A stretch of 64,000 bases of DNA from a plasmid. The stretch is taken from the sequence record CP113993.1; one strand, 5' to 3'. Both the position numbers and the translations under genes were made by a program. The notes beneath the pieces are model-generated. The model saw nothing but the letters and a program-made list of their open reading frames with translations, searched no databases and was not told the origin of the DNA. Within the stretch, counting starts at the first letter, position 1; every line of letters begins with the position of its first letter. Of this stretch, positions 1 through 50,075 are shown one piece after another.

Positions 1-258
1 TATTTTTCACTATGAGTCAAATTAATTTCGCTTTATGTTGCTAAAGAGAACTCACGAAGTTCTGTATAACAACCGGGACCTGGACGGTATAAATACTGAC
101 CAATTCTGAACCAGAGGTAACATGTATCATATACAGGATTGGATAACCAAACCACCAATTGAAAAATATTAATCAGGAATATTCATTAACGAAAGTAATT
201 ATTGAATACCAATTATCCATACTCCAGTCCCGGCCGAAAGGCCGGGGAGAATGACATA

Positions 259-627
259 TCAGTCAATACGAATGGCAATAATATATAACTTCACAGCATC
301 AAATTCTTTCACGATACGCCCCTGTACACCGACCTTCTGTTGTGGCGTTACCACCCGGCCAGCCCAGACGCTGGAAGGAATGATTAGCGTCATCTCACCA
401 CTTTTATCCCGGAAACGGTAATCCTCGCCCCCCAGTGACTGCACAATATGACCGTACAGTAACACTATTTGTCCTTCATCAATGACGGATGCTTTTTGTA
501 CCTGCCTAACTGTGGTAACGTTCTGCTGACGTGGCCCGACAAAACCACCGCCAAGAGACGTTTGAGCAGTATTACAGCCAGACAGCCCTGCCAATGCCAA
601 TGCCATGCCCCGTAAAAGATTGCTCAT
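259..627 (-). CDS. YgiW/YdeI-family OB-fold stress-induced lipoprotein (BOF family). The likely real start is the ATG at 627 (MSNLLRGMALALAGLSGC...) rather than the GTG at 645.
   Basis: Lipobox LAGLSGC follows a hydrophobic N-terminus. AAGGAG sits 6 nt upstream of the ATG at 627. Size (about 122 aa) and the motif DYRFRDKSGEMTLIIP are typical of the YgiW/BOF family. Confidence 0.55.
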   Translation of the reverse strand: MSNLLRGMALALAGLSGCNTAQTSLGGGFVGPRQQNVTTVRQVQKASVIDEGQIVLLYGHIVQSLGGEDYRFRDKSGEMTLIIPSSVWAGRVVTPQQKVGVQGRIVKEFDAVKLYIIAIRID

Positions 628-1049
628 ATCATAACTCCTTTTCACCTGATATATATTTTTTCTGAAAGAACAAGGTTGCGTCTTTTTAAGTTGCTCTCTT
701 TTGTTTTCCCGACATACAGCACTTCAGCCCATACAGGGAGAGGGTTTATGCCGGGTTTTGCTCACACCACAGGTCGTCAGATATCGGTAGCAGCAAACAC
801 TCATCAGCCCGGACTCGCCAGTTTAGAAAGGTTAAATACCACGGTTGCAAATATGAGACAACGATGTTACCAGCCAATCACAAAGTCGGGAGCTTTCATT
901 TTTTTACATTCCGTATTACGGCATTAATAAATCATTTTTTAATAGCAAAATATCTGCCCACCCTTGTGATGTTTCTTGCTTACCTTATATCATTAACGGC
1001 CTGACTGTCGTCTTGCTGCAAGTGATTTCAGTTTATCTGCATGTTATTT

Positions 1050-2200
1050 TCGTTATTTACGAATATATACCCGTGATCATTGAAGATGCTTGATTTTTCG
1101 GCAACAGGAGATCATGCTGCTCACCATGAAAATATTCATCACTGACCAACAAAAAGCTGAACTTGAGCGCCTTCACGATTCCAGTCGTGACGGGCGAGTC
1201 AGGGATCGTATTAAAGCCATTCTTCTGGCCTCCGAAGGCTGGAGTTCTGCCATGATTGCTCAGGCTTTGCGCCTGCATCAGACGACCGTTGACCACCATA
1301 TCAGCGAGTTTCTGAACAAAGGGAAGCTGAAGCCCGAAAACGGCGGCTCAGACAGTAAACTCAGTGCTGAACAAACAGCCTTTTTAATCAGTCAGTTAAC
1401 CGATAATTTGTTTCACCATGCCCGCGATGTTATTGCGTTTGTTGCCCGGACATGGAACATCGTTTTCAGCGTTCCGGGCATGAACAAGTGGCTGCATCGT
1501 AACGGCTTCACTTACAAAAAGCCGTCAGGCGTCCCCCATAAGTTCAGTGAAGAGAAACAAAGACAATTTATTGAATATTATGAGGAACTGAAAGAAACCG
1601 TGGGTGATGAACCGGTTCTTTTTATTGATGGAGTCCATCCAACTCAGGCCACTAAAATCAGCTACGGCTGGATATGCAAAGGCCAGAAAAAAGCAGTAAA
1701 AACAACAGGCAGTCGTACGCGGCTGAATATCATGGGGGCGCTGAATCTGAAGACCCCGGAATACCCGCTAATCTGCGAATATAAAACGATTAATGAATAT
1801 AACGTATCCCGTTTTTTCAATGAGATACGAAAGGTTTATCCTGATTACAACCAGAAAATTCACGTTATTCTGGATGGCGCAGGTTATCACCGTTCACAGT
1901 TAGTGAAAGACTGGGCGGAGGTGGTAAATATCAGGCTACATTATCTTCCACCTTACAGTCCGAACCTGAATCCGATAGAGCGAATGTGGAAGTTAATGAA
2001 CGAACATGCGCGGAATAATCGTTACTTCAGTAGTACGAAGGAATTCAGGGACGCAATATCTGAGTTTTTTAACCAGACGCTGCCGGATATAGCAGGTTCT
2101 CTGTCATCCCGAATTAATGATCACTTTCAGGTGCTGAAATCTGCATCTTGAGGTTTATTGGGTATATATTCAATATATTACCAAAATTCAGCTAATCGGA
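1050..2200 (+). mobile_element. IS630-family insertion sequence; boundaries approximate, inverted repeats not resolved
   Basis: A single transposase ORF with an N-terminal winged-helix and a C-terminal DDE_3 domain (DGAGYH, YSPNLNPIE motifs), flanked by AT-rich sequence. Confidence 0.6.
1114..2151 (+). CDS. IS630-family DDE transposase; start chosen at the ATG at 1114, which has an AGGAG ribosome-binding site
   Basis: Translation shows HTH_Tnp_IS630 and DDE_3 hallmarks. AGGAG lies 5 nt upstream of the ATG at 1114; the ORF track begins at a TTG at 1090. Confidence 0.8.
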   Translation: MLLTMKIFITDQQKAELERLHDSSRDGRVRDRIKAILLASEGWSSAMIAQALRLHQTTVDHHISEFLNKGKLKPENGGSDSKLSAEQTAFLISQLTDNLFHHARDVIAFVARTWNIVFSVPGMNKWLHRNGFTYKKPSGVPHKFSEEKQRQFIEYYEELKETVGDEPVLFIDGVHPTQATKISYGWICKGQKKAVKTTGSRTRLNIMGALNLKTPEYPLICEYKTINEYNVSRFFNEIRKVYPDYNQKIHVILDGAGYHRSQLVKDWAEVVNIRLHYLPPYSPNLNPIERMWKLMNEHARNNRYFSSTKEFRDAISEFFNQTLPDIAGSLSSRINDHFQVLKSAS

Positions 2201-2889
2201 GATAAAAGTCCGCAGCATGATTCCTCCGCTGACTTATATACGCCAGCATTTCTAATGTAAATTGGTGTTGGTGATTCGGACACTTCTCTCCTGCTCCTGA
2301 GAAGAATGTGTGTATCACCACATAAATAGACATTGACACAGCCAGGGTCTTGATCGACCTGGCCGCGTCCCTGTCCCCTTGGTATGCAGGGCTACACGGG
2401 GTGTGTCCATACTGTGAAAGTTACGGAAGGAATACAAAGGTAGCAAGCCATGTATTAAAATCACCTATATTTCAGCATACCCTAAGGCAGAAAGTTCGGC
2501 GATAAACAATGCCAATCGCTGGCGCCAGTATGAACACAGCGGCTATGATTAACACTTTTTCCGCCCCGGATTTTAATGATGTCCCTAACGACGACTGTAC
2601 CTGCCCTATAACCAGTCAGTGTACTGAAAACTATCCAGCTAACTCCAGGGTTAATCCACAGACAATATGTTAGCTGCTTCATTAAACCGGCTATTACAAC
2701 CACTTCATAACCATGCGGTCGTCATCCCAAAACAGGCGCCAAGCACTAGCAGGAGATTAACTTGACTCATATTTTTTTCACATCCTGGATTTAATCAGGC
2801 TATCCCCCCCCCTGCTGTCAATAACGCGGATCAACTACTGGCAATCTTATTACAGTCAATGACCGGCTATTACTCAAGATCGCAGATCC

Positions 2890-3295
2890 ATTAATTGGTG
2901 CTGAACGATCTGAGCGCCAGAATGCGACGTGCTGGGCACATCTCATGTGACGCAAGGAGCGATCCTCTGGGAGCAAAAACGGGAGAAATATTGTTTGGTC
3001 GCCCCAGCGTCCTCTGGAAATTGAGTTCGTGTTGTGTCAAAATCCAACCCACGTTCAGTTGATTAATTCGCAGGCCTTATCCGGCATGTGCACCAGCCAG
3101 ATTGCGTGTCATTGTCTGGAGCGCACCTTTTGATAAGGAATATCCAAGAAGATCAGGCTGGTCACAGAATGCGTTGATGGATCCAATATTGACAACTGTG
3201 ACCGAAGGAGTTTCTGGCCCGATTTCATCAAAAGTTCTCTTATATGCCCTTGCAGAGAGCGAGACGGTAGTGAACTTGCGGTACTAAGAATAAAC
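2890..3295 (-). pseudogene. C-terminal half of an SDR (short-chain dehydrogenase/reductase) gene, degenerate with an internal stop
   Basis: Minus-strand translation gives FTTVSLSARAYKRTFDEIGPETPSVTVVNIGSINAFCDQPDLLGYSLSKGALQTMTRNLAGAHAG, a stop, then GLRINQLNVGWILTQHE. These match the SDR NISS, YxxxK and IRVNAV.PGWI motifs. There is no start codon and the frame is broken. Confidence 0.4.
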
Positions 3296-3558
3296 TGTAC
3301 CGACTCTTCCTGGGCACTGGAATGTTCAGATGTACGACAGAGCCCTGCGCCTTTTGCAATAAATAATTAAAGGACTGGAACATTGCGACCACAGTAATAG
3401 CTGCCTTTAACGAATTTTTGACGTAATTCGCGTGTGAAAGAAGGGAATCGCCCCCCCCGGAACGATCCCCTGAAGGAATGGCAATTCCGTTCACCGCCAA
3501 TATTAGCTTTTTCCGGGCTGTGATAACATCTCCGGGTCATTTTTCAGAGCCAGGGCAG

Positions 3559-4536
3559 ATGAAGAAGAAAAACAGCACACCCACTCCTCACGATGCCACG
3601 TTCAGGCAGTTCCTGACGCAACCGGATATTGCCCGGGATTTCATGGAAATCCACCTGCCCGCAGAGCTGCGGGCCATCTGCGATCTCAGCACGCTGAAAC
3701 TGGAATCAGGCTCGTTTGTTGAGGATGACCTCCGCCAGTATTTCAGCGACGTCCTCTACAGCCTGAAAACCACAGCCGGTGACGGGTATGTTCACGTACT
3801 CATAGAACACCAGTCCTCCCCGGATAAGCATATGGCTTTCCGCCTGATACGCTATGCAGTGGCCGCCATGCAGCGCCACCTGGAGGCTGGCCATAAAAAA
3901 CTGCCACTGGTGATACCGGTGCTGTTCTATACGGGTAAGCGCAGCCCGTATCCGTACTCCACCCGGTGGCTGGATGAGTTTGACGCTCCGGCGCTGGCAG
4001 GCAAACTCTACAGCAGCGCTTTCCCGCTGGTAGACGTTACGGTCATTCCGGATGATGAAATCGCTGGTCATCGCAGCATGGCCGCCCTGACTTTACTACA
4101 AAAGCATATTCACCAGCGGGACCTGGCTGAACTGGTGGACCGGCTGGCGCCCATCTTGCTGGCCGGATATCTCTCTTCATCACAGGTAATATCGCTGGTA
4201 CACTATATAGTCCAGGCAGGCGAAACAGCCGACGCCGAAGCCTTTGTACGCGAACTGGCACAGCGTGTGCCGCAACACGGAGACGCATTAATGACCATCG
4301 CACAACAGCTCGAACAGAAGGGTATTGAAAAGGGACTGCAGCAGGGCCTGCAGCAGGGACTGCAGCAGGGCCTGCAGTTAGGGGAACAACGCGGCATTGA
4401 AAAAGGACGTTCAGAAGGTGAGCGCGAAGCGACACTGAAAATAGCCCGTACCATGCTCCGGAACGGCATTGAACGCAATACCGTCATGAAAATGACCGGT
4501 CTGACTGAAGACGACCTGGCGCAGATCCGCCACTAA
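3559..4536 (+). CDS. Rpn family recombination-promoting nuclease (YhgA-like PD-(D/E)XK, transposase_31 family), full length; copy A
   Basis: Start MKKKNSTPTPHDATFRQF fits Rpn N-termini. The N-terminal nuclease domain is present (VLIEHQSSPDKHMAFRLIRY). The C-terminal region carries a QQGL repeat and the IEKG...RNTVMKMTGLTEDDLAQIRH tail typical of Rpn paralogs. Confidence 0.85.
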   Translation: MKKKNSTPTPHDATFRQFLTQPDIARDFMEIHLPAELRAICDLSTLKLESGSFVEDDLRQYFSDVLYSLKTTAGDGYVHVLIEHQSSPDKHMAFRLIRYAVAAMQRHLEAGHKKLPLVIPVLFYTGKRSPYPYSTRWLDEFDAPALAGKLYSSAFPLVDVTVIPDDEIAGHRSMAALTLLQKHIHQRDLAELVDRLAPILLAGYLSSSQVISLVHYIVQAGETADAEAFVRELAQRVPQHGDALMTIAQQLEQKGIEKGLQQGLQQGLQQGLQLGEQRGIEKGRSEGEREATLKIARTMLRNGIERNTVMKMTGLTEDDLAQIRH

Positions 4537-4817
4537 TCCCCCTGGCACTCCCTGTCCGGCCATCAGCGAATACTGGTGGGACAGGGAGGTACCAGAGTCA
4601 GGCTCTGCCAGCCACAGCGATTAAACACCTTCATCCCCCCCCCCGCTACGTTCCCCGTCAGACGTGTTGTATTCACACTGGAGCACACGCCAGTATTCAG
4701 CAATATCGTTAAGTACCCGCGCCGTCATAACGGCATCTGCCACAGCCGAATGCGCCCGTCCGCTCCAGCTCAGGTCTGCCTGGCTGACAGCACTGGCCAG
4801 CGATATCGTGCCGTAAT
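3970..4817 (+). repeat. Copy A of an inverted repeat shared with 14952..15597: the 3' part of the rpn gene plus about 280 bp of the 3' end of a convergent exonuclease gene
   Basis: Direct comparison: the reverse complement of 4537..4817 matches 14952..15230 almost base for base. Protein-level identity continues from DEFDAPALAGKLYSSAFPLV through IRH. Confidence 0.8.
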
Positions 4818-4985
4818 ATTTTCGCGGCGGGGCACGCCGCGTTAGCCTGTGGGGAGATGGCAGTTTTAGGCCGCTTGATGAAACAGGAACCCACCGTGGT
4901 GAGTCTGACTGCGGTGTGAAGGCTGTAGGTATTCCCCGTCCTTCAGGGCGGGGAGGATATCAAGAGATCTCTGCTTCATGCATTA

Positions 4986-6323
4986 TTAGGCTTTATCCTC
5001 GGGGGCATTCAGTGGATACGGGTTTTTATGAATACGGTTGTAGTTGAGGGTATAGAGCGCAGTGATGACCATCAACGTAACAAATGACCACATAACCTCT
5101 TTTGCCCCGGATCCCACGACGGCCCAGATACAGTAAACGAAGGCTATAAAGGTAATTAGCAGATACACTGGTCGTGCTTTACCGAAATGACCATGACCGA
5201 GCAGCAGCAGTGCGGCGCAGGTATAGAGATAAGGTACAAGGGTAAATATAACCGAGACGGAAGAGACCAGACCAAACTCTTTTGCCGCATTCGGCGAAAT
5301 ACTGCTGAACTGGAATATGGTCATCAGTACTCCGATGATGAGCAGCCCGGCGGCCGGCGTACCGGCTTTGTTCACGCGAGAGAAAACAGGGGGGAACAAG
5401 CCATCGTCAGCGGCCGCCTTCGCCGTTTGACCGGCAAGCAGCGTCCAGCCACCGAGCGAACCAAGGCATCCGGCAGCCGCGCAAAACGATACGATAGCCC
5501 CTGCGGTGTCCCCCAGCGCCATACGTGCCGCATCACCGAAGGGAGAGGCTGAGACGCGCAGGGCGGCGTTAGGGATCATCCCCATGATAGCGGTTGTTGA
5601 CAGCACGTAGCAGACAGCGGCAATTAACACCCCACCAATTGTTGCAATAGGCACGTTACGTTTTGGATTCTTCACGACACCTGCAGCAACCGAGGCACTT
5701 TCAACGCCAATAAAGGACCATAATGTTACGCTCAACGTACTCTGGATAGCACCGAATGTGTTTAGTCCACTGACGTTCCAGGCCGCCATATAAGTTTCAC
5801 CGCGAAACCAGAACCAGCCAAAGACGGCAATCCCGACGATGGGGATCAGTGCCAGCACGGTGGCAACAGCCTGTACGCGGGTGATCATTTTGGGCCCGAC
5901 GATGTTCAACAGAACGAAAACCCACAGTACTGCCACACAAGTGATGGTCAACACCATAGGATCGTTAAGAATGGGGAAGAAGTAACTCAGATAGCCCACA
6001 CCAATCACCACCATGGCGATATTCCCCACCCAGCAAGCGAGCCAGTACAGGACGTTGGTCTGGTAACCTAAAAATGGTCCGAAACAGCGGCGGGCATAGG
6101 CGTATGAGCCACCGGGGCTGGGATCTAAGGACGACATTTTGGCATAGACCATTGAGAGTGCCAGCGCGCCGATAATGGTGACGAGCCATCCATAGATGGC
6201 AATCCCACCAGTTGCGGCTAGGTTAGCTGGTAACAAAAAAACTCCTGACCCCATGATATTTCCGGAAACCATCAGAGTGACGGGAACCAGACCCACTTTA
6301 TGCATATCTGTGTCGGTTGACAT
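4986..6323 (-). CDS. adiC: Arginine:agmatine antiporter AdiC (APC superfamily); start at the internal ATG ([12 protein letters not shown]...)
   Basis: Near-identity over the full length to E. coli AdiC as recalled ([36 protein letters not shown]...). The ORF track gives an over-extended 496-aa frame. Confidence 0.9.
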
Positions 6324-6561
6324 ATATTTTCTCCTGAATGTCATTTCAGGGATAACAATACTGTGTGGCGCACATATTTTTAGGGACTGCGGGGAAGATA
6401 TACCTGTTGACGATATTATTATCGCTGATGCCAAAAGTCTGGTACTGCAGCCAGCTGCAGGGCAGCATGATGTCATGGAATTTGCTATCTTCTGCCCGGG
6501 GTAATGTTTTAAGACGGTCCCTTCAGGCCGTTGTCCAACATATTGATATTCAGAGAGACAT

Positions 6562-7635
6562 TCATTGTATCATCCACATCGTGAACCCGGATATCGTGGG
6601 GGATATAACGGCCGTTCTCACCACATTATCAAATGGGGGGGCCATGCCCCCTGGCTTGTCGTCATATCGGGTGTAGGTGATGAGCTTTCCCTGTACAAGG
6701 AGCTGTGTGGTTTGCCACAGCAGGATCACCATAGCGAAGTTGAAAAAAGCAAACAAAGGGAGTGCTAATATATGAAAAAAAACGGCATTACCATCATAAG
6801 CAAGATGTAACCCTGTTGCCGCCATGGCGGAGAGACCAAAAGAGAATCCCCAGAAGGACACATTAAATGGTTGTGAGAGATACCACGGCATCAGCCGTAA
6901 CAAAATAAGGAATTGCAACAGACCATAACCAAACAATACCATGACCAGGGTATCACATTCACCGCCATTGAGATTCAGCCAGGCACTGCTGCCTACCAGA
7001 GCGGGGGCCAGTTGGATGCCCAGCGAAGGGGGTAATCTGGCAGATAATGTCGTGCTGTAGCGTAAGCGCTGTAAAATTCTGGGTTCCAGACTTAACCAGG
7101 AAAGAAGTCCTGCCCCTAAAAATACCGTCCCCGCAGTATGATACCCAAAAGCCACACATGCTGTCGTTGCGATAAAATTACCTGCAACGGTAGGCAGATA
7201 TAGGACTGGTGTTACCATTTCTTCCGGGAAGGCGCCACGCCAGAATTCTGCTGACTGCCATACAGAATAAACCACCAGTGTGGTGATACCAATGCAGAAC
7301 ACGCCCGTAGCTAGCGGGCGGCTCCAGGGGATAATACCAGTGGCTATCAATAACGTTGTTGTAGGTAACAGACTCACAAAGTTGCTGTTTTCCGGATGGC
7401 GCATTTCTGCAAATACGCTACGGGGGTAGCGCAGGAAACGATATAAAAATGCCAGCGTTAGCATTCCCCATATAATCATGGCCAAGGCAACCAGTCCGTC
7501 ACCAACCCAGTGGCTTACCGGCCATATTCTGCTGGCGTAATCCCAGGTAAAACCTGTACTGATAATCCCCAGAACTATGCCGTAATAACTTACCGGAAGA
7601 TTCAGTATCAGGGCTGGTTTCTTTTCATTATACAT
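6562..7635 (-). CDS. TehA-like tellurite-resistance / C4-dicarboxylate transporter family (TDT) membrane protein
   Basis: Collinear similarity to E. coli TehA (LNLPAGYFGIVLG..., [39 protein letters not shown]). It sits in the position normally occupied by adiY. Confidence 0.75.
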
Positions 7636-7876
7636 ACTGCTCCCCTTTTAATGTCTGGCGTATCATGACATTACACTGTCAGAATTAGCCCTGAATAACC
7701 AATGTCATAGTCAGTCCCGCGAAGCGGCACCGACAGCGATAAATAATTTTACCTTCGAACAGAAAATATTTGAGAGGGTAAAATGGTTCCGTGTGGTGCC
7801 TGGCAGGAAATGAAATGCCCTTCCAGGAGGCAGGGAACGGTGAGCCCTTCACTTTCGTAACTGCTTCTGACATATA

Positions 7877-7915
7877 AAACGCGGGGGTAACCCCGGTAAC
7901 CCCGCGTAAAAAAGA
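7877..7915. terminator. Bidirectional rho-independent terminator downstream of adiA
   Basis: Stem ACGCGGGG...CCCCGCGT with T/A runs on both sides, about 40 bp past the adiA stop. Confidence 0.5.
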
Positions 7916-7953
7916 CTCTGTTTTTACTCTGTTCTGTGTCAGAGTTTAATATT

Positions 7954-10221
7954 TCAGTCCTTTATGCACATAACGTGATAAACACCATCAATAATTTCGG
8001 TACCTTCGGTTTCATGTTCGAAACCAGGGAACTCATGATCCCAGGACTGCAGAGCACGAAGATAAGCAATCTGTGGGCTGGTACTGTCACCAAAGTTTTC
8101 CCCGGAGAGCAGCATAGGAATTCCCGGCGGATACGGGATGACGGAGTTGGCGGCGATGCGTTTTTGCAGTTCTTCAATAGCGACCATTTCGACGTTATCA
8201 GACACCATAGCCTGATAGGCATCGCGTGGGGTCATCATGGCTTCCGGAAGTGAAGCATAGGCGGCATTCAGGCTGGCACCAGGGTTGTTGGTTTTCAGCC
8301 AGGCGAACATTTTGTCACCCAAATCGTGAACGCCCATGGAACCATAAATATCCGGGTACTGATTTGCCAGCTCAGGCATCACCTGCGACAACGGTGCATT
8401 GCTGTCATAATGACGCTTAAAGGAGCACAATGTATTAATCAGCGTACCCCATTTACCGCGGGTGATCCCCATTGAGAAGAGGAACATTATCTGGAAGTCG
8501 GTGGTGCGGGTCGGTACGATGCCATGACGGCCAAGCCATGCGGTAACCAGTGCGGCCGGTACGCCGCTGTCCAGCAGGTTGCCGTCATCCCCCATACCCG
8601 GAGTCAGAATGCTGACCTTAATCGGGTCGAGCATGCTCCAGTTATCTGGCAGGCCGTTAAAGCCGTGCCAGGTTTCCCCTGGTCGCATGACCCAGCAGTT
8701 TTGATCGTGGCTTAACAGTTCGGCGGGGGCATCCTCAAAAGGTATCTCTTTACCGGTTTTCGGATCAATAACCGTCTCTTTGTTCCACGGCTTAAAAAAC
8801 CAGTCATTATTATCGGTAAACTCTCGATACAGACGCGCCATGGCCTGGCGGAAATCCACCGCCTCGTCGATTACTTCCTGAGTCAGAGTTAACCCACTGG
8901 TACCGTCCATCATTGACACCGCTACATCGTTGGATGCACAGATAGCGTACAGTGGCGAGGTGGTGGCGTGCATCATGTAGGCCTGGTTGAAACGGGAGAA
9001 GTTCACCGCACTACGCCCTTCACGAACATGAATGTAGGAGGCCTGAGATAGTGCATTTAGCAGCTTATGGGTAGAGTGGGTCGCGAACACGGTTGGGCCA
9101 CTATGATCGCTCGGGTTACCGCGCATGGCATAGTGGTCGGCATAAACCGGGTTGAACCGCGCGTAGCCGTACCAGGCTTCGTCAAAATGAATGCGGTCAC
9201 TGGTCTGCTCCAATAGTGACTGGGCGTTTTTGGCGTTGTAACACACGCCGTCGTAGGTACAGTTGGTCACGACACTATAGGACGGTTTATGCGCTGCATA
9301 TTCGCGCGTGAGCGGGCTGGTGCGGATTTTTTCCTGCAACGCTTCCGGCTGCATCTCCTGTGGGTAGATAGGCCCGATAATGCCGTAACGGTTTCGACTG
9401 GGTACCATGTAGATCGGTTTAGCGCCGGTGAGGATGAGCCCCTGTTCAATGGATTTATGGCAGTTACGGTCAATCACCACGACATCATGATCGGTCATGC
9501 AGGCCTGCATAATGGTCCGGTTAGAACCGGATGTTCCGACAACAACTGACCACGAGCGGTCAGCACCAAACACCCGGGCAGCGTTTTTTTCGCTCTCACC
9601 AAAGGCACCGGTGTGGTCCAGCAGAGAACCTAATGAGGCGCGTTCAATACCCATATCGGTACGGAACAGGTTTTCGCCGTAGTAGTCGCGGTACAGCCGA
9701 CCTGCTGGCGTTTTGGTAAAGCCGACGCCCCCCTGGTGACCCGGCGCAGCCCAGGAATATTCGTGGATCTCATTGTACTTCATCAGTGCCGAAAACAGAG
9801 GCGGTAACATCTGCTGGTGGTAGCGGGCCATTGCAGCGACGGCCCGTCCGGCGATGAAATCTGCAGAGTCCTCCAGAATCCAGGCGAACTCATCAATAAG
9901 CTCCATCAGCTGCCGGTCAATCAGCGCGGTAGCTTTCTCACGTTCACCCAGTAAAAAAACCGGTACGTTTTGCTGATGTTCGTTGAGCTTATCAAGCAAC
10001 TGGCGTACGCGTTGATGCTCCTCTTTTTCGTCCATCTGATAGCTGAACATCAGACAGCCGATAGGTTCGTTAGCGGCGACGATAGCGTAACCATCGTCGA
10101 GCGACGTGGACTGCATGACCTCAACATTCTGGCGGCGTAACGCTTCTGCCAGACGTGCTACCGCCGTACCGACCCAGGTGTCCTGGTGCAGAAATTCACT
10201 TTCAACAATTAATATTTTCAT
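7954..10221 (-). CDS. adiA: Biodegradative (acid-inducible) arginine decarboxylase AdiA, 755 aa
   Basis: Full-length collinear match to E. coli AdiA as recalled (MKVLIVESEFLHQDTWVG ... GTEIIDGIYHVMCVKA), same length. Confidence 0.92.
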   Translation of the reverse strand: MKILIVESEFLHQDTWVGTAVARLAEALRRQNVEVMQSTSLDDGYAIVAANEPIGCLMFSYQMDEKEEHQRVRQLLDKLNEHQQNVPVFLLGEREKATALIDRQLMELIDEFAWILEDSADFIAGRAVAAMARYHQQMLPPLFSALMKYNEIHEYSWAAPGHQGGVGFTKTPAGRLYRDYYGENLFRTDMGIERASLGSLLDHTGAFGESEKNAARVFGADRSWSVVVGTSGSNRTIMQACMTDHDVVVIDRNCHKSIEQGLILTGAKPIYMVPSRNRYGIIGPIYPQEMQPEALQEKIRTSPLTREYAAHKPSYSVVTNCTYDGVCYNAKNAQSLLEQTSDRIHFDEAWYGYARFNPVYADHYAMRGNPSDHSGPTVFATHSTHKLLNALSQASYIHVREGRSAVNFSRFNQAYMMHATTSPLYAICASNDVAVSMMDGTSGLTLTQEVIDEAVDFRQAMARLYREFTDNNDWFFKPWNKETVIDPKTGKEIPFEDAPAELLSHDQNCWVMRPGETWHGFNGLPDNWSMLDPIKVSILTPGMGDDGNLLDSGVPAALVTAWLGRHGIVPTRTTDFQIMFLFSMGITRGKWGTLINTLCSFKRHYDSNAPLSQVMPELANQYPDIYGSMGVHDLGDKMFAWLKTNNPGASLNAAYASLPEAMMTPRDAYQAMVSDNVEMVAIEELQKRIAANSVIPYPPGIPMLLSGENFGDSTSPQIAYLRALQSWDHEFPGFEHETEGTEIIDGVYHVMCIKD

Positions 10222-10622
10222 ACACTTTACTTCCTTTATTGTGTTGTGAACATGATAATGAGTAATAAGTTGCGTATTGTACGGAGTAAATAAATCTCTG
10301 GAAGTTATCGACAGGCGGGTTATTATTATGGCTGATTCTGATATTTGTTGTTAAAAGGTCCTGCGATTTTCCATAAATACAGACCAGAGCTTACCTTACT
10401 TTAAAGACTGTGAATGTTTATATGAAAGGCCGTATGAGTGATACTGGTAAAATATGAAGAAAGATGCGCGATTGACGAAATTAAGTTGCCCTGAAAATTA
10501 TCATGCGTACACTCCACCACCGTTGATGACACTAATAGTTTAATTCTCAGGTGAGTACCAGAATGCGTTAAAGACCTTCCAAAGGCGTTTGCCTTGTCAA
10601 AATCACCTCCAGTCACATTTAT

Positions 10623-10699
10623 CCGCCACTAGCTCAGCAGGACAGAGCAAATAACCCCGAGGTTGTAGGTGCGAGGTTCGAGGCCTCGGTGGCGGACCA
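10623..10699 (+). tRNA. 77-nt tRNA-like element with a degenerate anticodon arm, loop CCCCGAG (possible CCG anticodon, Arg-like D-arm). Possible pseudo-tRNA or island attachment relic.
   Basis: Folded by eye: perfect 7-bp acceptor stem (CCGCCAC/GTGGCGG), D-arm GCTC-AGCAGGACA-GAGC, T-arm CGAGG-TTCGAGG-CCTCG, discriminator A plus CCA. The anticodon stem does not pair canonically. Confidence 0.4.
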
Positions 10700-44092: not shown

Positions 44093-46114
44093 ATGAAAAT
44101 GACACGGCTTTATCCTCTGGCCTTGGGGGGATTATTGCTCCCCGCCATTGCTAATGCCCAGACTTCACAGCAAGACGAAAGCACGCTGGTGGTTACCGCC
44201 AGTAAACAATCTTCCCGCTCGGCATCAGCCAACAATGTCTCGTTTACCGTTGTCAGCGCGCCGGAGTTAAGCGACGCCGGCGTTACCGCCAGCGACAAAC
44301 TCCCCAAAGTCTTGCCTGGGCTCAATATTGAAAATAGCGGCAACATGCTTTTTTCGACAATCTCGCTACGCGGCGTCTCTTCGGCGCAGGACTTCTATAA
44401 CCCCGCCGTCACCCTGTATGTCGATGGCGTCCCTCAGCTTTCTACCAACACCATCCAGGCGCTTACCGATGTGCAAAGCGTGGAGTTGCTGCGTGGCCCA
44501 CAGGGAACGTTATATGGCAAAAGCGCTCAGGGCGGGATCATCAACATCGTCACCCGGCAGCCGGACAACACGCCGCGCGGCTATATTGAAGGCGGCGTCA
44601 GCAGCCGCGACAGTTATCGAAGTAAACTCAACCTGAGCGGCCCCATTCAGGATGGCCTGCTGTACGGCAGCGTCACCCTGTTACGCCAGGTTGATGACGG
44701 CGACATGATTAACCCCGCGACAGGAAGCGATGATTTAGGCGGCACCCGCGCCAGCATAGGGAATGTGAAACTGCGTCTGGCGCCGGACGATCAGCCCTGG
44801 GAAATAGGCTTTGCCGCCTCACGCGAATGTACCCGTGCCACCCAGGACGCCTATGTGGGATGGAATGATATTAAGGGCCGTAAGCTGTCGATCAGCGATG
44901 GTTTACCAGACCCGTACATGCGGCGCTGCACTGACAGTCAGACCCTGAGTGGGAAATACACCACCGACGACTGGGTTTTCAACCTGATCAGCGCCTGGCA
45001 GCAGCAGCATTATTCGCGCACCTTCCCTTCCGGTTCGTTAATCGTCAATATGCCTCAGCGCTGGAATCAGGATGTCCAGGAGCTGCGCGCCGCAACCCTG
45101 GGCGATGCGCGTACCGTTGATATGGTGTTTGGCCTCTATCGCCAGAACACGCGCGAGCAAATGCAGGCAACTTACGACATGCCTACCATGCGTTATCTGA
45201 CCAGCGCCGGCTATACCACCGCTGAAACGCTGGCCGCATACAGTGACCTGACCTGGCATTTAACCGATCGTTTTGATATCGGCGGCGGCGTGCGCTTCTC
45301 GCATGATAAATCCAGTACACAATATCACGGCAGCATGCGCGGCAATCCGTTTGGCGACCAGGGTAAGAGCAATGACGATCAGGTGCTCGGACAGCTATCC
45401 GCAGGCTATATGCTGACCGACGACTGGAGAGTGTATACCCGTGTGGCCCAGGGATATAAACCTTCCGGGTACAACATCGTGCCTACTGCGGGTCTTGATG
45501 CCAAACCGTTCGTCGCCGAGAAATCCATCAACTATGAACTTGGCACTCGCTACGAAACCGCTGACGTCACGCTGCAAGCCGCGACGTTTTATACCCACAC
45601 CAAAGACATGCAGCTCTACTCTGGTCCGGTCGGGATGCAGACATTAAGCAATGCGGGTAAAGCCGACGCCACCGGCGTTGAGCTTGAAGCGAAATGGCGG
45701 TTTGCGCCAGGCTGGTCATGGGATATCAATGGCAACGTGATCCGTTCCGAATTCACCAATGACAGTGAGTTGTATCACGGCAACCGGGTGCCGTTCGTAC
45801 CTCGTTATGGCGCGGGAAGCAGCGTGAACGGCGTGATTGATACGCGCTATGGCGCACTGATGCCCCGACTGGCGGTTAATCTGGTCGGGCCGCATTATTT
45901 CGATGGCGACAACCAGTTACGGCAAGGCACCTATGCCACCCTGGACAGCAGCCTGGGCTGGCAGGCGACTGAACGGATGAACATTTCCGTCTATGTCGAT
46001 AACCTGTTCGACCGTCGTTACCGTACCTATGGCTACATGAACGGCAGCAGCGCCGTCGCGCAGGTCAATATGGGGCGCACCGTCGGTATCAATACGCGAA
46101 TTGATTTCTTCTGA
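44093..46114 (+). CDS. fyuA: FyuA/Psn TonB-dependent outer-membrane receptor for ferric yersiniabactin and pesticin
   Basis: 673 aa, signal peptide MKMTRLYPLALGGLLLPAIANA, TonB box, C-terminal Phe typical of beta-barrels. Confidence 0.93.
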   Translation: MKMTRLYPLALGGLLLPAIANAQTSQQDESTLVVTASKQSSRSASANNVSFTVVSAPELSDAGVTASDKLPKVLPGLNIENSGNMLFSTISLRGVSSAQDFYNPAVTLYVDGVPQLSTNTIQALTDVQSVELLRGPQGTLYGKSAQGGIINIVTRQPDNTPRGYIEGGVSSRDSYRSKLNLSGPIQDGLLYGSVTLLRQVDDGDMINPATGSDDLGGTRASIGNVKLRLAPDDQPWEIGFAASRECTRATQDAYVGWNDIKGRKLSISDGLPDPYMRRCTDSQTLSGKYTTDDWVFNLISAWQQQHYSRTFPSGSLIVNMPQRWNQDVQELRAATLGDARTVDMVFGLYRQNTREQMQATYDMPTMRYLTSAGYTTAETLAAYSDLTWHLTDRFDIGGGVRFSHDKSSTQYHGSMRGNPFGDQGKSNDDQVLGQLSAGYMLTDDWRVYTRVAQGYKPSGYNIVPTAGLDAKPFVAEKSINYELGTRYETADVTLQAATFYTHTKDMQLYSGPVGMQTLSNAGKADATGVELEAKWRFAPGWSWDINGNVIRSEFTNDSELYHGNRVPFVPRYGAGSSVNGVIDTRYGALMPRLAVNLVGPHYFDGDNQLRQGTYATLDSSLGWQATERMNISVYVDNLFDRRYRTYGYMNGSSAVAQVNMGRTVGINTRIDFF

Positions 46115-46449
46115 CTCTTTAATAAATATCCTCCGTTGATGCCTGAGAATATTTATTTCCAGACCCGGGCCCCCATAAAGGACTCTGAAGTGTCTGTTAA
46201 CCCCGTGGTGATTCACTTCTGGCTTTTCTGCCTTATATCCCCGCCCGCACTGGGCGAGGGTTTACGGCGGTTTTTGCTAAAAGCCGGTTTAGCTGGTGGC
46301 ATTCGCCAGATATCAGACCTGCTATTCAATAAATTCCGGCCTAACGTGTACCATTCCGGATATGGTTCTGGATCCCCCGTGGAAAGCTCTACGGAAGTGA
46401 GGCAGGCCACAGGTGGAAAAATTCCGTAATTTATTCACCTGTGGCCTGC

Positions 46450-47238
46450 TTAAATTGCAGGAATATAATTACTTCCCGGGAAATATTTATCCACTAACGC
46501 ATAAAGAATTGCCGTTGTTTCAGCGTCAACGACACCATCATAATTCTTTTGTCGGAAGTGAAGCTGAAATGTACGGATTAAATTCTTGTATCCGATTTCT
46601 GTTCCAGCATCTGAGATGTCGTATCCGTACGCTTTTAACTTAGCAACAATATCTGCTTTAGATGGTAAAGACTTGCTGAACTGCGTCAGATAGTGTTGCA
46701 TGATCGATTCCTCATACCATGCACCGATACCAGCGTCGTAAAGTTCTTTCCACGGGAAAGCCGCTCCAGGATCACTTTTTCTTCCCGGGGCAATATCGCT
46801 GTGTCCGACAACATTCACAGGCGTAATATCAGGATATCGTTGCAGAATATTGGCGGCCAGCTCCTTGATTGCATCAATCTGGACCGGGTTATAGGGAGGA
46901 AAGACAAACACGCCGTTGTTATCACAGGCCAGGTTAACCGTCTCAATCCCAATGGCAGTATCATTCAGGTTGCTGCGTCCGGCCCATGAACTTACTCCAG
47001 CATGCCAGGCTCGCTCATTTTCATCAACCAGGTTGAATATACGCATATCCTTAAAACCTGCATCAATATACGTTTTTTCTGATGGATCAGGAATAAGATA
47101 GTGAGCGCTTACCGAAGGCCCGGTCAAAGCGGTAATTGACGCCTTAAAATCAAGAGCAGTATAGTGCATAACAAGGAAGCGAACACGATGATTGAAACCT
47201 TTTATCGCGCGATAGCTATTATAATCAACAGTATACAT
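46450..47238 (-). CDS. N-acetylmuramoyl-L-alanine amidase (amidase_2 / AmiD-AmpD family) with a C-terminal peptidoglycan-binding domain and no signal peptide
   Basis: Zn-ligand-region motifs (FLVMHYTA...SAHYLIP...WHAG...GHSDIAP) are collinear with AmiD. The N-terminus is not hydrophobic. Strong ribosome-binding site AAGGAGG. Confidence 0.75.
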   Translation of the reverse strand: MYTVDYNSYRAIKGFNHRVRFLVMHYTALDFKASITALTGPSVSAHYLIPDPSEKTYIDAGFKDMRIFNLVDENERAWHAGVSSWAGRSNLNDTAIGIETVNLACDNNGVFVFPPYNPVQIDAIKELAANILQRYPDITPVNVVGHSDIAPGRKSDPGAAFPWKELYDAGIGAWYEESIMQHYLTQFSKSLPSKADIVAKLKAYGYDISDAGTEIGYKNLIRTFQLHFRQKNYDGVVDAETTAILYALVDKYFPGSNYIPAI

Positions 47239-47736
47239 TGAAACCTCCTTATGTTGTTAAACTATCAATACCGGGATGTATGACAACAAGATGTATACAA
47301 AGAAGAGACACGCGTAGCTCTGAAAATTTTTGTTGAAGTGATTCATAATTGTTGTTCAGGTGAAAATCACTGCGCATCTACGGTTACAGTTGACCACCCT
47401 GCCCGTTACTGTTTTACCTTAAGATTTTCATTTTCAATTATTGTAGTTTTGTGAAAATGACAGTATCAGTTCTTCAATCATGGCATACAGATCGAGTTCT
47501 TTTTCAGAATAAAAATGCCATCAGGCTATGGGAGACATTCGCCTGAGTGGGGGCAGCCTCCTGGTATTAACAGTTTCGGAAACCACGACAGCAAGGTGAA
47601 GTGACTAATAATGCTGAGCAGTCGCCCACACTGATTTCTAATTTCCGGCTCAATATGGATCTGGCCTGTCAGCTCTTTTTTCCATCAACAACGCAGGGGA
47701 TTATCGTTAACCGACATCCCCTGATAACTTTAGTTA

Positions 47737-47994
47737 TTAGAATGAAGGACCATGCCATTCCGTCATAGGTTGATTCCAGTTTGGTTTTGGAATTAATGGC
47801 TCACTGATATTGTGTGCTTTAGGGTCGAGTTTACTTGGGTCTTTACCATTATTATGACCACAGGCAGGGACGCCCAAAATAGAGTCTATTGCACATCCTG
47901 CTTTTGCTCCTAGCTCTCCACTTGTATAGCCACCATAGTCACCGAATCCCGCACCACTGACATTAATAATTTCATTTTCAGATAATGATTTCAT
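47737..47994 (-). CDS. Candidate class II microcin/bacteriocin precursor with a double-glycine leader (leader MKSLSENEIINVSGA, mature peptide about 70 aa with 2 Cys)
   Basis: The leader has hydrophobic residues at -4, -7, -12, -15, Glu at -8 and Gly-Ala at -2/-1, as in MccH47, MccM and ColV. The mature part is Gly-rich with a CAIDSILGVPAC pair. It lies in a long AT-rich tract. Confidence 0.5.
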   Translation of the reverse strand: MKSLSENEIINVSGAGFGDYGGYTSGELGAKAGCAIDSILGVPACGHNNGKDPSKLDPKAHNISEPLIPKPNWNQPMTEWHGPSF

Positions 47995-48429
47995 ATTCCA
48001 ATACCTTTAAGAGATGTTTTCGATCTTCATTGAAGTCCCGGCTAATATTAGCCTTTTTAAATGGGATGAAAAGCTTTATTTCATAAACAATAACACACTA
48101 AAAGTAAAAATATCTTCTGGAAGTAATTATATTCTTTTATATTCACTGTACTATTTTTAATATATGTTTATTTTTTAAAAGCAAAGCTCTAAACCACCAT
48201 AGTGGAATTTAACTAAGTAAATCTGGTAGTTAACCCCTGCTGGATAATTATCCTAATTGTTTATCATACCATCATTAAAGTAACTGTATTTTCTTTCATA
48301 ATATTACATAGTCTTACAATCAGTGCTAACATTGATAGAGAGGTTGTTAGCGGGTACCTCCAAATTTTTACGATACTTATTATACGACTGGTGTAAGGCT
48401 TATAACTGCGTCAGCCCTTCAATCATGGT

Positions 48430-48695
48430 GTCAGAATCAACTTTTCCCGTTCCGGAAAACCAACAGATAATCCATATATTGAGTCATTTAACGGCAGTCT
48501 GCGGGATGAATGCCTGAACCTGCACTGGTTCCTGTCGCTGAAAGATGTACAGGACAAACCCGATAAGTGGCGCAGGGAATATCATCATGAGAGGACGTAT
48601 TCATCCCTGAATAACATGACTCCGGCTGAATTCATCCAAAGTCTCCGAAACCTTTCCGGAAGTAGAAAAAGAAAAATCCTGTAAACACACAGACG
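48430..48695 (+). mobile_element. 3' fragment of an IS3-family (IS407-group-like) orfB / integrase-core gene
   Basis: Translation [54 protein letters not shown] is about 80% identical to the C-terminus of the orfB at 61368..62177. Confidence 0.6.
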
Positions 48696-48821
48696 GGCTG
48701 TTACGCGTATGGAAGCTTTTTTGTGCTGTCAATCTGGAAAGTTTGTTGCCAGTTGGTAATTTTCCTGACGCACTGAAAGTACAGTATTACATAACTGAAT
48801 GATATATCTGTTTTATTTTTC

Positions 48822-48837
48822 TGGCACAACAATTGCT
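48822..48837 (+). promoter_or_regulatory. Sigma-54 (-24/-12) promoter upstream of megL
   Basis: TGGCAC-N5-TTGCT, about 40 bp upstream of the megL ATG. A sigma-54 activator is encoded at 51516..52730. Confidence 0.55.
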
Positions 48838-48848
48838 ACGTTTCATGA

Positions 48849-50075
<1,227 letters not shown>

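Follow-up and report, generated by a model that had tools for sequence, protein, structure and literature searches.

A candidate class II microcin precursor on pESI-type plasmids and its modular family in Salmonella

The peptide gene and its product

The subject of this work is a small gene within a stretch of 64,000 nucleotides of plasmid DNA (sequence record CP113993.1; hereafter the window). It lies between the yersiniabactin receptor gene fyuA and a fragment of an IS3-family insertion sequence (IS), with an amidase gene as its neighbour on the fyuA side, and encodes an 85-residue peptide that the databases (WP_024143068.1 in RefSeq, identical to A0A626LZU1 in UniProt) name only as 'hypothetical' or 'uncharacterized'. 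An earlier inspection of the letters alone (the sequence-only reading) had taken this open reading frame (ORF) for the precursor of an orphan double-glycine-leader peptide, perhaps a novel class II microcin, and had coupled it with a leaderless, AmiD-like amidase. As set out below, the ORF is, on the evidence of its sequence, a genuine precursor with a canonical double-glycine leader of the class II microcin type, and its product would be a new, previously unannotated peptide of class II microcin-like kind. The coordinates of all features are collected in Table 1.

The precursor reads MKSLSENEIINVSGA followed by GFGDYGGYTSGELGAKAGCAIDSILGVPACGHNNGKDPSKLDPKAHNISEPLIPKPNWNQPMTEWHGPSF, so that the predicted mature part starts GFGDYGG... 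and ends ...WHGPSF. Leaders of class II microcins comprise the N-terminal 15 – 19 residues, with hydrophobic residues at positions -4, -7 and -12, an acidic residue at -8 and Gly followed by Gly, Ala or Ser at -2/-1, in precursors of less than about 150 residues that yield mature peptides of roughly 5 – 10 kDa. Direct reading of the present leader gives M-15, L-12, E-8, I-7, V-4, G-2 and A-1, which confirms every leader position named in the sequence-only reading, and the 85-residue precursor would leave a mature peptide of 70 residues. The computed properties of the latter (7349 Da, pI 5.8, 11 Gly, 8 Pro, and 2 Cys in GCAIDSILGVPACG) likewise agree with the Gly-rich, two-cysteine mature part that had been described. 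The precursor also satisfies Motif 2, <M..[KEQI]x[IL]x9G[GAS], of a published screen for microcins in Enterobacteriaceae (PMC12219008). When the strict leader pattern was run over the 1,559 candidate start sites of the window, this ORF alone matched; over a complete 323-kb pESI plasmid only four of 8,701 start sites did so, three of them belonging to double-glycine peptides.

Whether so short an ORF is real is best judged from its divergence. The best homologue, P0002 (84 residues, 82% identical, chromosomal in Salmonella), lies in a locus (L002) whose DNA can be aligned with that of the window only across the ORF itself (47749-47997, 81.9%), the flanks being unrelated; over the ORF the synonymous divergence (dS) is 0.96 and the non-synonymous divergence (dN) 0.10, giving a dN/dS of 0.107, which falls to 0.03 in the mature N-terminal core and stands at 0.10 in the C-terminal half and 0.30 in the leader. 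The ORF is thus under strong purifying selection at the protein level. A chance ORF with a fortuitously leader-like N-terminus might be suggested by the fact that no curated hidden Markov model (HMM) recognises the peptide at threshold, but it is excluded by such a dN/dS ratio at a dS near 1 between unalignable flanks, and the occurrence of homologues in exporter loci (see below) and the uniqueness of the leader pattern in the window tell against it also, so that this explanation can be regarded as effectively refuted.

Conservation among close relatives is much less instructive. The region 46115-48420 is 100% identical in about 125 Salmonella enterica plasmids, megaplasmids of the pESI type (IncFIB) that come for the most part from S. 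Infantis associated with poultry, and also in one E. coli plasmid, pH222-1, while the peptide gene of an S. Macclesfield plasmid (NZ_CP022118.1) shows no differences against a background of 0.2%; with background divergence as low as this, none of these identities carries information on selection. The exact protein occurs in 13,286 indexed sample blocks of public data, always under the name 'hypothetical' and without exception in the gene order megL, peptide, amidase, fyuA, and the ORF is intact in every copy seen. Scans of the peptide region with PADLOC and Rfam gave nothing meaningful (two Rfam matches, one on a hairpin and the other inside the amidase gene, were set aside as noise), and an AlphaFold2 model built from a seven-sequence alignment of the peptide was unusable (mean predicted local distance difference test score 44.9).

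Table 1. Features in and around the peptide locus. Positions are those of the window unless another record is named.
Feature	Position	Strand	Remarks
Gene for the 85-residue double-glycine-leader precursor	47737..47994	-	ATG start; stop codon 47737-47739; from the ORF listing
Leader, codons 1-15 (MKSLSENEIINVSGA)	47950..47994	-	read directly; predicted cleavage after Gly-Ala
Mature N-terminal core (GFGDYGGYTSGELGAKAGCAIDSILGVPACGHNNGK...)	47797..47949	-	Gly-rich, two Cys; from composition and dN/dS of 0.03 over residues 16-50
C-terminal module (LIPKPNWNQPMTEWHGPSF)	47740..47796	-	from alignments; common to at least 3 other double-glycine peptide types
AT-rich upstream region	47995..48444	.	~28% GC
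HlyD adaptor (429 residues) and 'peptidase domain-containing ABC transporter' (700 residues)	NZ_CP016407.1 67618-71012		outside the window
Exporter pair with divergent 186-residue cargo	reference pESI 66974-71012 (L005 16974-21012)		outside the window
Gene for the 99-residue sibling	NZ_CP016407.1 129103-129402 (L006 29103-29402)		outside the window; just beyond ybtS, followed by a PqaA-family gene
AmpDh3-type N-acetylmuramoyl-L-alanine amidase, 262 residues	46450..47238	-	PDB 4BXD match; Pfam Amidase_2 2e-26
Inverted repeat, left arm, 16 bp (GAATATAATTACTTCC)	46461..46476	.	part of the amidase cassette's own 3' end
Inverted repeat, right arm, 16 bp	48119..48134	.	125 nt upstream of the peptide start; TATAAT on the - strand
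Terminator-like hairpin, 29-nt arms	46395..46456	.	between convergent fyuA and amidase; inverted repeat I1
fyuA, yersiniabactin receptor gene	44093..46114	+	neighbour only
IS3-family integrase-core (orfB) fragment without N-terminus	~48445..48684	+	as annotated by RefSeq in the E. coli plasmid, where this stretch is identical

Relatives, the shared module and the exporters

The view that the peptide is an orphan singleton has not survived. Although its direct homologues are only a handful among 5.8 billion proteins, all from Salmonella, a profile search combined with a full HMMER scan of 1.84 billion representatives (which gave only 12 matches) defines a small family, of which the cluster of P0002 alone accounts for hundreds of contigs from the subspecies houtenae, arizonae, diarizonae and enterica. 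In the chromosomal locus of P0002 the peptide gene is followed on the same strand by genes for a 211-residue protein, a 424-residue adaptor of HlyD/AprE type and a 699-residue ATP-binding cassette (ABC) transporter with a C39 peptidase domain, that is, a peptidase-containing ABC transporter (PCAT).

What unites the wider family is a C-terminal module, [FI]xPKP[NH]WNQPMTxWHGGF, which according to the alignments sits on at least four different N-terminal cores. Besides the 85-residue peptide (which itself ends ...WHGPSF where its relatives have ...WHGGF), the module is carried by a 99-residue peptide of pESI, by P0007, by P0081 and by a 70-residue peptide encoded next to P0081. The pair last mentioned occurs on an IncFII-type contig (L104), where P0081 (74 residues) and its neighbour have unrelated cores but both have double-glycine leaders and both end ...PKPHWNQPMTMWHGGF, and where a 706-residue C39-ABC transporter and a 424-residue adaptor adjoin them. 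The 99-residue sibling (MKELTMEQLTVVNGG, then SDDIAGC...FKPKPNWNQPMTMWHGGF; WP_020833668.1, carrying the UniRef name 'Bacteriocin') is a second family member on pESI itself, and as its gene and that of the 85-residue peptide lie on opposite ybt flanks, microcin-type genes bracket the ybt locus in the reference plasmid. Relatives of type B (P0012 and others, which are shorter and resemble the 99-residue type) lie 2 kb from an exporter of the 699/424-residue kind. The siblings, too, repeatedly give sub-threshold matches to the Pfam families MccV and Bacteriocin_IIc (PF10439). A chromosomal island in Salmonella (L008 2747-15743) holds a C39-ABC transporter with its adaptor, a 68-residue double-glycine peptide, a type-B peptide and PqaA, together with a colicin-DNase and its immunity and lysis genes, all interspersed with IS fragments. 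Taken as a whole, the alignments and gene neighbourhoods place the 85-residue peptide in a Salmonella-restricted family of modular build, with PCAT exporters encoded next to its members.

In known class II microcins toxicity resides in an N-terminal domain and uptake in a C-terminal one (PMC12219008). The present module has been shuffled among unrelated cores, as a receptor-recognition module would be, and we infer from this that it may serve uptake or receptor recognition.

Two further relatives, P0080 (90 residues; ...SGQTYA followed by GFSSYPGYTSGEIG...) and P0084 (92 residues; ...SGQASA followed by KGFSSYSGYTSGDLG...), carry the same (type-A) mature domain behind Sec signals (L098 6001-6273 and L102 2430-2708, respectively). 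P0080, annotated as hypothetical, is common in Escherichia-type chromosomes (413 sample blocks), near a pap fimbrial operon and a gene for a MarR/PapX-like protein. In both cases the mature part begins at the same GF... residue as that of the 85-residue peptide, which confirms the predicted mature N-terminus of the latter.

As to exporters, the sequence-only reading was right that none lies nearby, but the plasmid as a whole is not devoid of them. A search of the window for C39-ABC and HlyD genes found none, the ABC query matching only YbtPQ; on the reference pESI (NZ_CP016407.1), in which the peptide gene occupies 97502-97759, an intact pair of genes for a C39-ABC transporter and an HlyD adaptor lies 26.5 kb away, corresponding to about 10.5 kb past the end of the window. 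All three Pfam domains expected of such a transporter (C39, ABC_membrane and ABC_tran) match the 700-residue protein (WP_023994117.1), and its N-terminal domain aligns with the double-glycine protease LahT150 (PDB 6MPZ, E 6e-23) with the Cys, His and Asp conserved. C39 domains such as that of LahT150 are known to be promiscuous. The divergently encoded 186-residue cargo has a double-glycine-type leader (MKKLTSMELDLIAGS followed by G) and two internal repeats of about 60 residues; it has no Pfam match and no literature on it was found. The leaders of the three pESI peptides (85, 99 and 186 residues) fit a common consensus, MKxL[ST]xx[EQ][LI]xx[VI]xG[GAS]. Some 129 plasmids have the peptide region, and 107 of these have the exporter segment as well; the annotation of the reference pESI shows no further PCAT. 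An exporter pair of this kind accompanies the homologues P0002, P0012 and P0081; the window has none, and the pair on the reference pESI is a different one. On pESI the peptide gene has been split from the exporter type that goes with its closest homologues, in agreement with the sequence-only reading, and it is an orphan only locally. The IS3 fragment, too, is as that reading described it.

The amidase and the flanking DNA

The neighbouring amidase had been described as AmiD-like and leaderless. The size (262 residues), the Amidase_2 domain (accompanied by a weak PG_binding_1 match) and the absence of any N-terminal signal all stand, but the affiliation does not: the match to AmpDh3 (PDB 4BXD) has an E value of 9.4e-101 and pairs amidase residues 1-252 with residues 1-253, while that to AmiD is weaker (E 9e-57) and begins only at amidase residue 12 and chain residue 22. 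No upstream extension of the ORF is possible, the first start after the preceding stop being the ATG at 47238, which has a strong Shine-Dalgarno sequence (AAGGAGG), and all but one of 80 relatives (from Salmonella diarizonae/arizonae, Enterobacter, Erwinia, Edwardsiella, Yersinia, Bartonella, Pseudomonas and Xenorhabdus) have alignments that start at query residue 1, the exception starting at residue 4. AmpDh3 has no signal peptide and is reported to be cytoplasmic, a claimed role in type VI secretion being disputed (PMC9998450). By homology the plasmid enzyme is accordingly classed as an AmpDh3 orthologue, natively leaderless and, going by its family, presumably cytoplasmic. The possibility that it is a pesticin-like muramidase targeted to FyuA was considered and rejected, as it lacks domains for receptor binding or translocation and is orthologous to AmpDh3 over its full length.

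The supposedly unusual pairing of peptide and amidase invites the idea of a functional pair, in which the amidase would assist release of the peptide or the two would together attack the cell wall. The two genes are indeed adjacent and on the same strand, and both are enclosed by a perfect 16-bp inverted repeat, of a kind that none of 1,000 Markov resamples reproduced. The membership of the enzyme in a family reported to be cytoplasmic speaks against this idea, as does the extent of the cassette: DNA homology with other genera runs from about 46433/46465 to 47300-47459 and ends at least about 290 nt short of the peptide stop. Furthermore, the 80 amidase loci yielded a single peptide match, a short and weak tblastn hit in Serratia (L031; 24 residues, 42% identity, E 0.003), no amidase is found at any of the homologous peptide loci, and one pESI variant (L112) retains the peptide with its amidase position disrupted by an IS. 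Since the amidase homology stops short of the peptide and the peptide homologues have no amidase, the pairing is best read as an accident of mosaic assembly, with the amidase cassette separate from, and unrelated to, the peptide system; a functional pair seems very improbable indeed.

Some further observations concern the amidase cassette itself. Between 46450-47238 and the corresponding amidase of the Macclesfield plasmid (L014 20336-21124, NZ_CP022118.1) 37 of 789 nt differ (4.7%; dN/dS 0.16). The same comparison gives only 0-0.5% for fyuA, the peptide gene, megL and the intergenic regions, a pattern suggestive of a recombination patch limited to the amidase. Directly upstream of its ribosome-binding site, 47257-47300 would encode ...FVYILL[ST]Y...; this DNA is conserved in Salmonella, Enterobacter, Erwinia and Edwardsiella, with the ORF interrupted by stops in some, and it may serve AmpDh3-type genes as a leader or regulatory element.

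The description of the surroundings as an AT-rich tract proved accurate, the GC content being 28-44% across ~47050-48850 as against 55-60% in the ybt genes. The idea that adjacency to fyuA marks a competition or virulence module fared less well: none of the homologous loci has ybt or fyuA, and so the link with yersiniabactin is positional only. Downstream of fyuA, a stretch of about 65 nt (46216-46280) recurs, unannotated and at 83-91% identity, in many matching enterobacterial plasmids (of Salmonella, E. coli and others) and could represent a small repeat or something terminator-like. The window also holds an IS26 at ~17800-18216, and it is rearranged relative to the reference pESI at the end of this IS26 (18194/18195), such that window 1-18194 corresponds to reference 140820-159027 in forward orientation and window 18195-45495 to reference 127301-100001 in reverse. 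Only the first ~188 nt of the salicylate synthase gene ybtS remain beside the ybt operon (18195-18382, - strand), with the consequence that yersiniabactin synthesis is probably broken in this variant; the gene for the 99-residue sibling and pqaA have been displaced or lost.

Function, and comparison with known systems

If the evidence assembled above is put together, a complete microcin mechanism can be proposed. The C39 domain of a PCAT would bind the amphipathic leader through its hydrophobic residues at -4, -7 and -12 and cut after Gly-Ala, and the exporter, together with its adaptor and TolC, would release a 70-residue peptide of ~7.35 kDa in which the two cysteines probably form a disulfide; the conserved Pro/Trp-rich C-terminal module, if MccV and MccL are a guide, would then serve to recognise a receptor in the outer membrane of related enterobacteria, and the Gly-rich N-terminal core would be the toxic part. 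On pESI, export would proceed via the other PCAT of the plasmid, or via a co-resident one. That the peptide is, by ancestry, a processed and exported product of the double-glycine-leader type can be held with high confidence; the full sequence of events just outlined, from export by the pESI PCAT and TolC through cleavage, disulfide formation and receptor targeting to antibacterial action, is the account that we would favour, with moderate confidence.

A number of points weigh against this account. Curated models give it little encouragement: the Pfam MccV family (PF17508) matches the peptide with an E value of 0.06 and 14.3 bits, below its cut-off of 27, and NCBIfam models do not match at all (which is in keeping with the earlier description of the sequence as novel, for no characterised microcin resembles it). 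With a grand average of hydropathy of -0.6 the mature peptide is hydrophilic, and it is acidic as well, whereas MccV and MccL are hydrophobic. The PCAT encoded on pESI shares just 33% identity with the exporter usual in the family and has its own adjacent cargo, while some peptide-bearing plasmids, such as E. coli pH222-1, have no exporter. No consensus σ70 promoter was scored upstream of the peptide gene on the - strand of 47995..48444. The 211-residue protein encoded after P0002 is a soluble β-solenoid and not a membrane protein of immunity type, and no PCAT lies near P0080 or P0084, whose use of the Sec route leaves room for a non-toxic role as a secreted or periplasmic protein.

The question of immunity deserves separate mention. 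A microcin gene would be expected to have next to it a gene for a small inner-membrane protein, and the surroundings of the peptide gene were screened for one by hydrophobicity. As had been noted before, nothing convincing is found beside the peptide: the screen yielded only two hydrophobic ORFs of 29 residues, 47257..47346 (-) and 47669..47758 (-). Both were rejected as immunity genes, neither being conserved in the P0002 locus; the former, moreover, falls inside the DNA of the amidase cassette, and stop codons disrupt it in other genera. Apart from the peptide, the only small ORF conserved between the window and that locus is a short one overlapping it in a different frame. The want of an immunity gene is the weakest point of a reading as a toxin. 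Given this result and the existence of the Sec-signal homologues, antibacterial activity has to be spoken of as inferred.

These same facts are what make it conceivable that the product is exported and processed but is not a toxin, being instead a small secreted or periplasmic protein with a signalling, protective or other extracytoplasmic role, whose domain could use either of two export signals interchangeably, the double-glycine leader being one of them. Such a reading would account for P0080 and P0084, with the same mature domain behind Sec signals and neither PCAT nor immunity gene nearby, for the want of an immunity gene beside any type-A member, and for the hydrophilic, acidic nature of the mature peptide. 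It has more difficulty in accommodating a C-terminal module that is shuffled among unrelated cores, as is typical of the receptor-binding modules of bacteriocins, or the presence of family members in islands with colicin-DNase, immunity and lysis genes, and to our knowledge no enterobacterial cargo of this size has been characterised that is not a microcin. This reading is judged unlikely.

A different kind of doubt is that the gene could be a stranded relic, descended from a microcin locus whose exporter and immunity genes were lost during mosaic assembly of the ybt region, and now silent or unexported, persisting only because pESI is young and clonal. The cognate 699-residue ABC transporter and 424-residue membrane fusion protein are indeed absent from pESI, an IS3 fragment lies directly upstream in a tract of 28% GC with no scored promoter, the identity across some 125 plasmids is uninformative, as explained, and plasmids with the peptide but no PCAT exist. 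Set against this, the ORF is intact in every copy seen, including those in the 13,286 sample blocks, a PCAT with an intact catalytic triad is in most cases present on the same plasmid, the three pESI peptides have a common leader consensus, and C39 domains are known to be promiscuous. The relic explanation thus appears quite improbable.

Returning to the favoured account of an exported microcin, it can be extended to a multi-cargo system on pESI, in which one PCAT/HlyD pair would serve three dispersed cargos (of 85, 99 and 186 residues), the shared module would target a single outer-membrane receptor, and the type-A domain would be one that has switched its export route. This extension is tentative, and on balance rather doubtful.

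The interest of the locus lies partly in its host. S. Infantis bearing pESI is a globally expanding, multidrug-resistant pathogen of poultry and humans, and its fitness advantage has been attributed to fimbriae, yersiniabactin and resistance genes. If the plasmid PCAT exports an active microcin, pESI would carry an interbacterial weapon, and if the peptides are active they could help clones with pESI to compete in the gut of poultry. In addition, a common C-terminal module on four cores constitutes a natural experiment for mapping the determinants of microcin uptake, and the Sec-signal homologues present a case of one mature domain using two export routes in enterobacteria. Even if the peptide should be inactive, its annotation is corrected and the amidase is recognised as an ordinary AmpDh3 orthologue.

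Literature searches combining pESI with microcin or bacteriocin returned nothing that describes microcin genes, double-glycine peptides or a PCAT on this plasmid. A catalogue built with signal-sequence regular expressions (PMC12219008, Nat Commun 2025) reports 1,060 UniProt matches, and the present peptide may be listed among these, since it matches Motif 2 and is a UniProt entry of less than 150 residues from Enterobacteriaceae; its sequence strings are absent from the searchable full text and from two supplementary files of cinful (PMC9746304).

In comparison with AmpDh3 of P. aeruginosa (PA0807; PDB 4BXD/4BXE/4BXJ), the plasmid amidase has the same build of Amidase_2 plus peptidoglycan-binding domain and the same absence of a signal peptide. 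Their alignment shows the conserved motifs HYTA and GHSDIAPGRKSDPG. It differs in residing on an enterobacterial plasmid beside fyuA, in having a 10-residue C-terminal tail that runs into an arm of the 16-bp inverted repeat, and in that no PA0808-like partner gene was identified downstream.

Among the microcins, those of class IIb (MccE492, MccH47, MccM and MccI47) share with the peptide system a double-glycine leader, export by a PCAT (here predicted) and a siderophore locus (here ybt) nearby, but this last association is missing from all the homologous peptide loci. The 85-residue peptide does not have a Ser-rich C-terminus (it ends ...NQPMTEWHGPSF), and no maturation genes of the mceCDIJ/mchCD type (glycosyltransferase, esterase, MceIJ) are annotated around the locus or elsewhere on the reference pESI; with neither a Ser-rich tail nor maturation genes, a reading as a siderophore microcin was rejected.

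Class IIa (MccV/ColV, MccL and MccN), which comprises unmodified peptides of Enterobacteriaceae exported by PCATs, offers a parallel, albeit not a complete one. Past the leader and the Gly-rich start there is no significant similarity to these microcins, the KPKPNWNQPMTxWHGGF module is unrelated to the uptake domain of MccV and MccL, and the pESI peptide has neither an adjacent immunity gene nor an exporter in its own operon. What the two do have in common is a 15-residue leader with the spacing of the MccV signal MRTLTLNELDSVSGG (the sequence of which is given in PMC12219008), a plasmid-borne precursor of less than 10 kDa with a Gly-rich N-terminal part and two Cys, a C39-ABC transporter and HlyD adaptor adjoining the homologues of the 85-residue peptide, and an apparent division into an N-terminal core and a C-terminal module.

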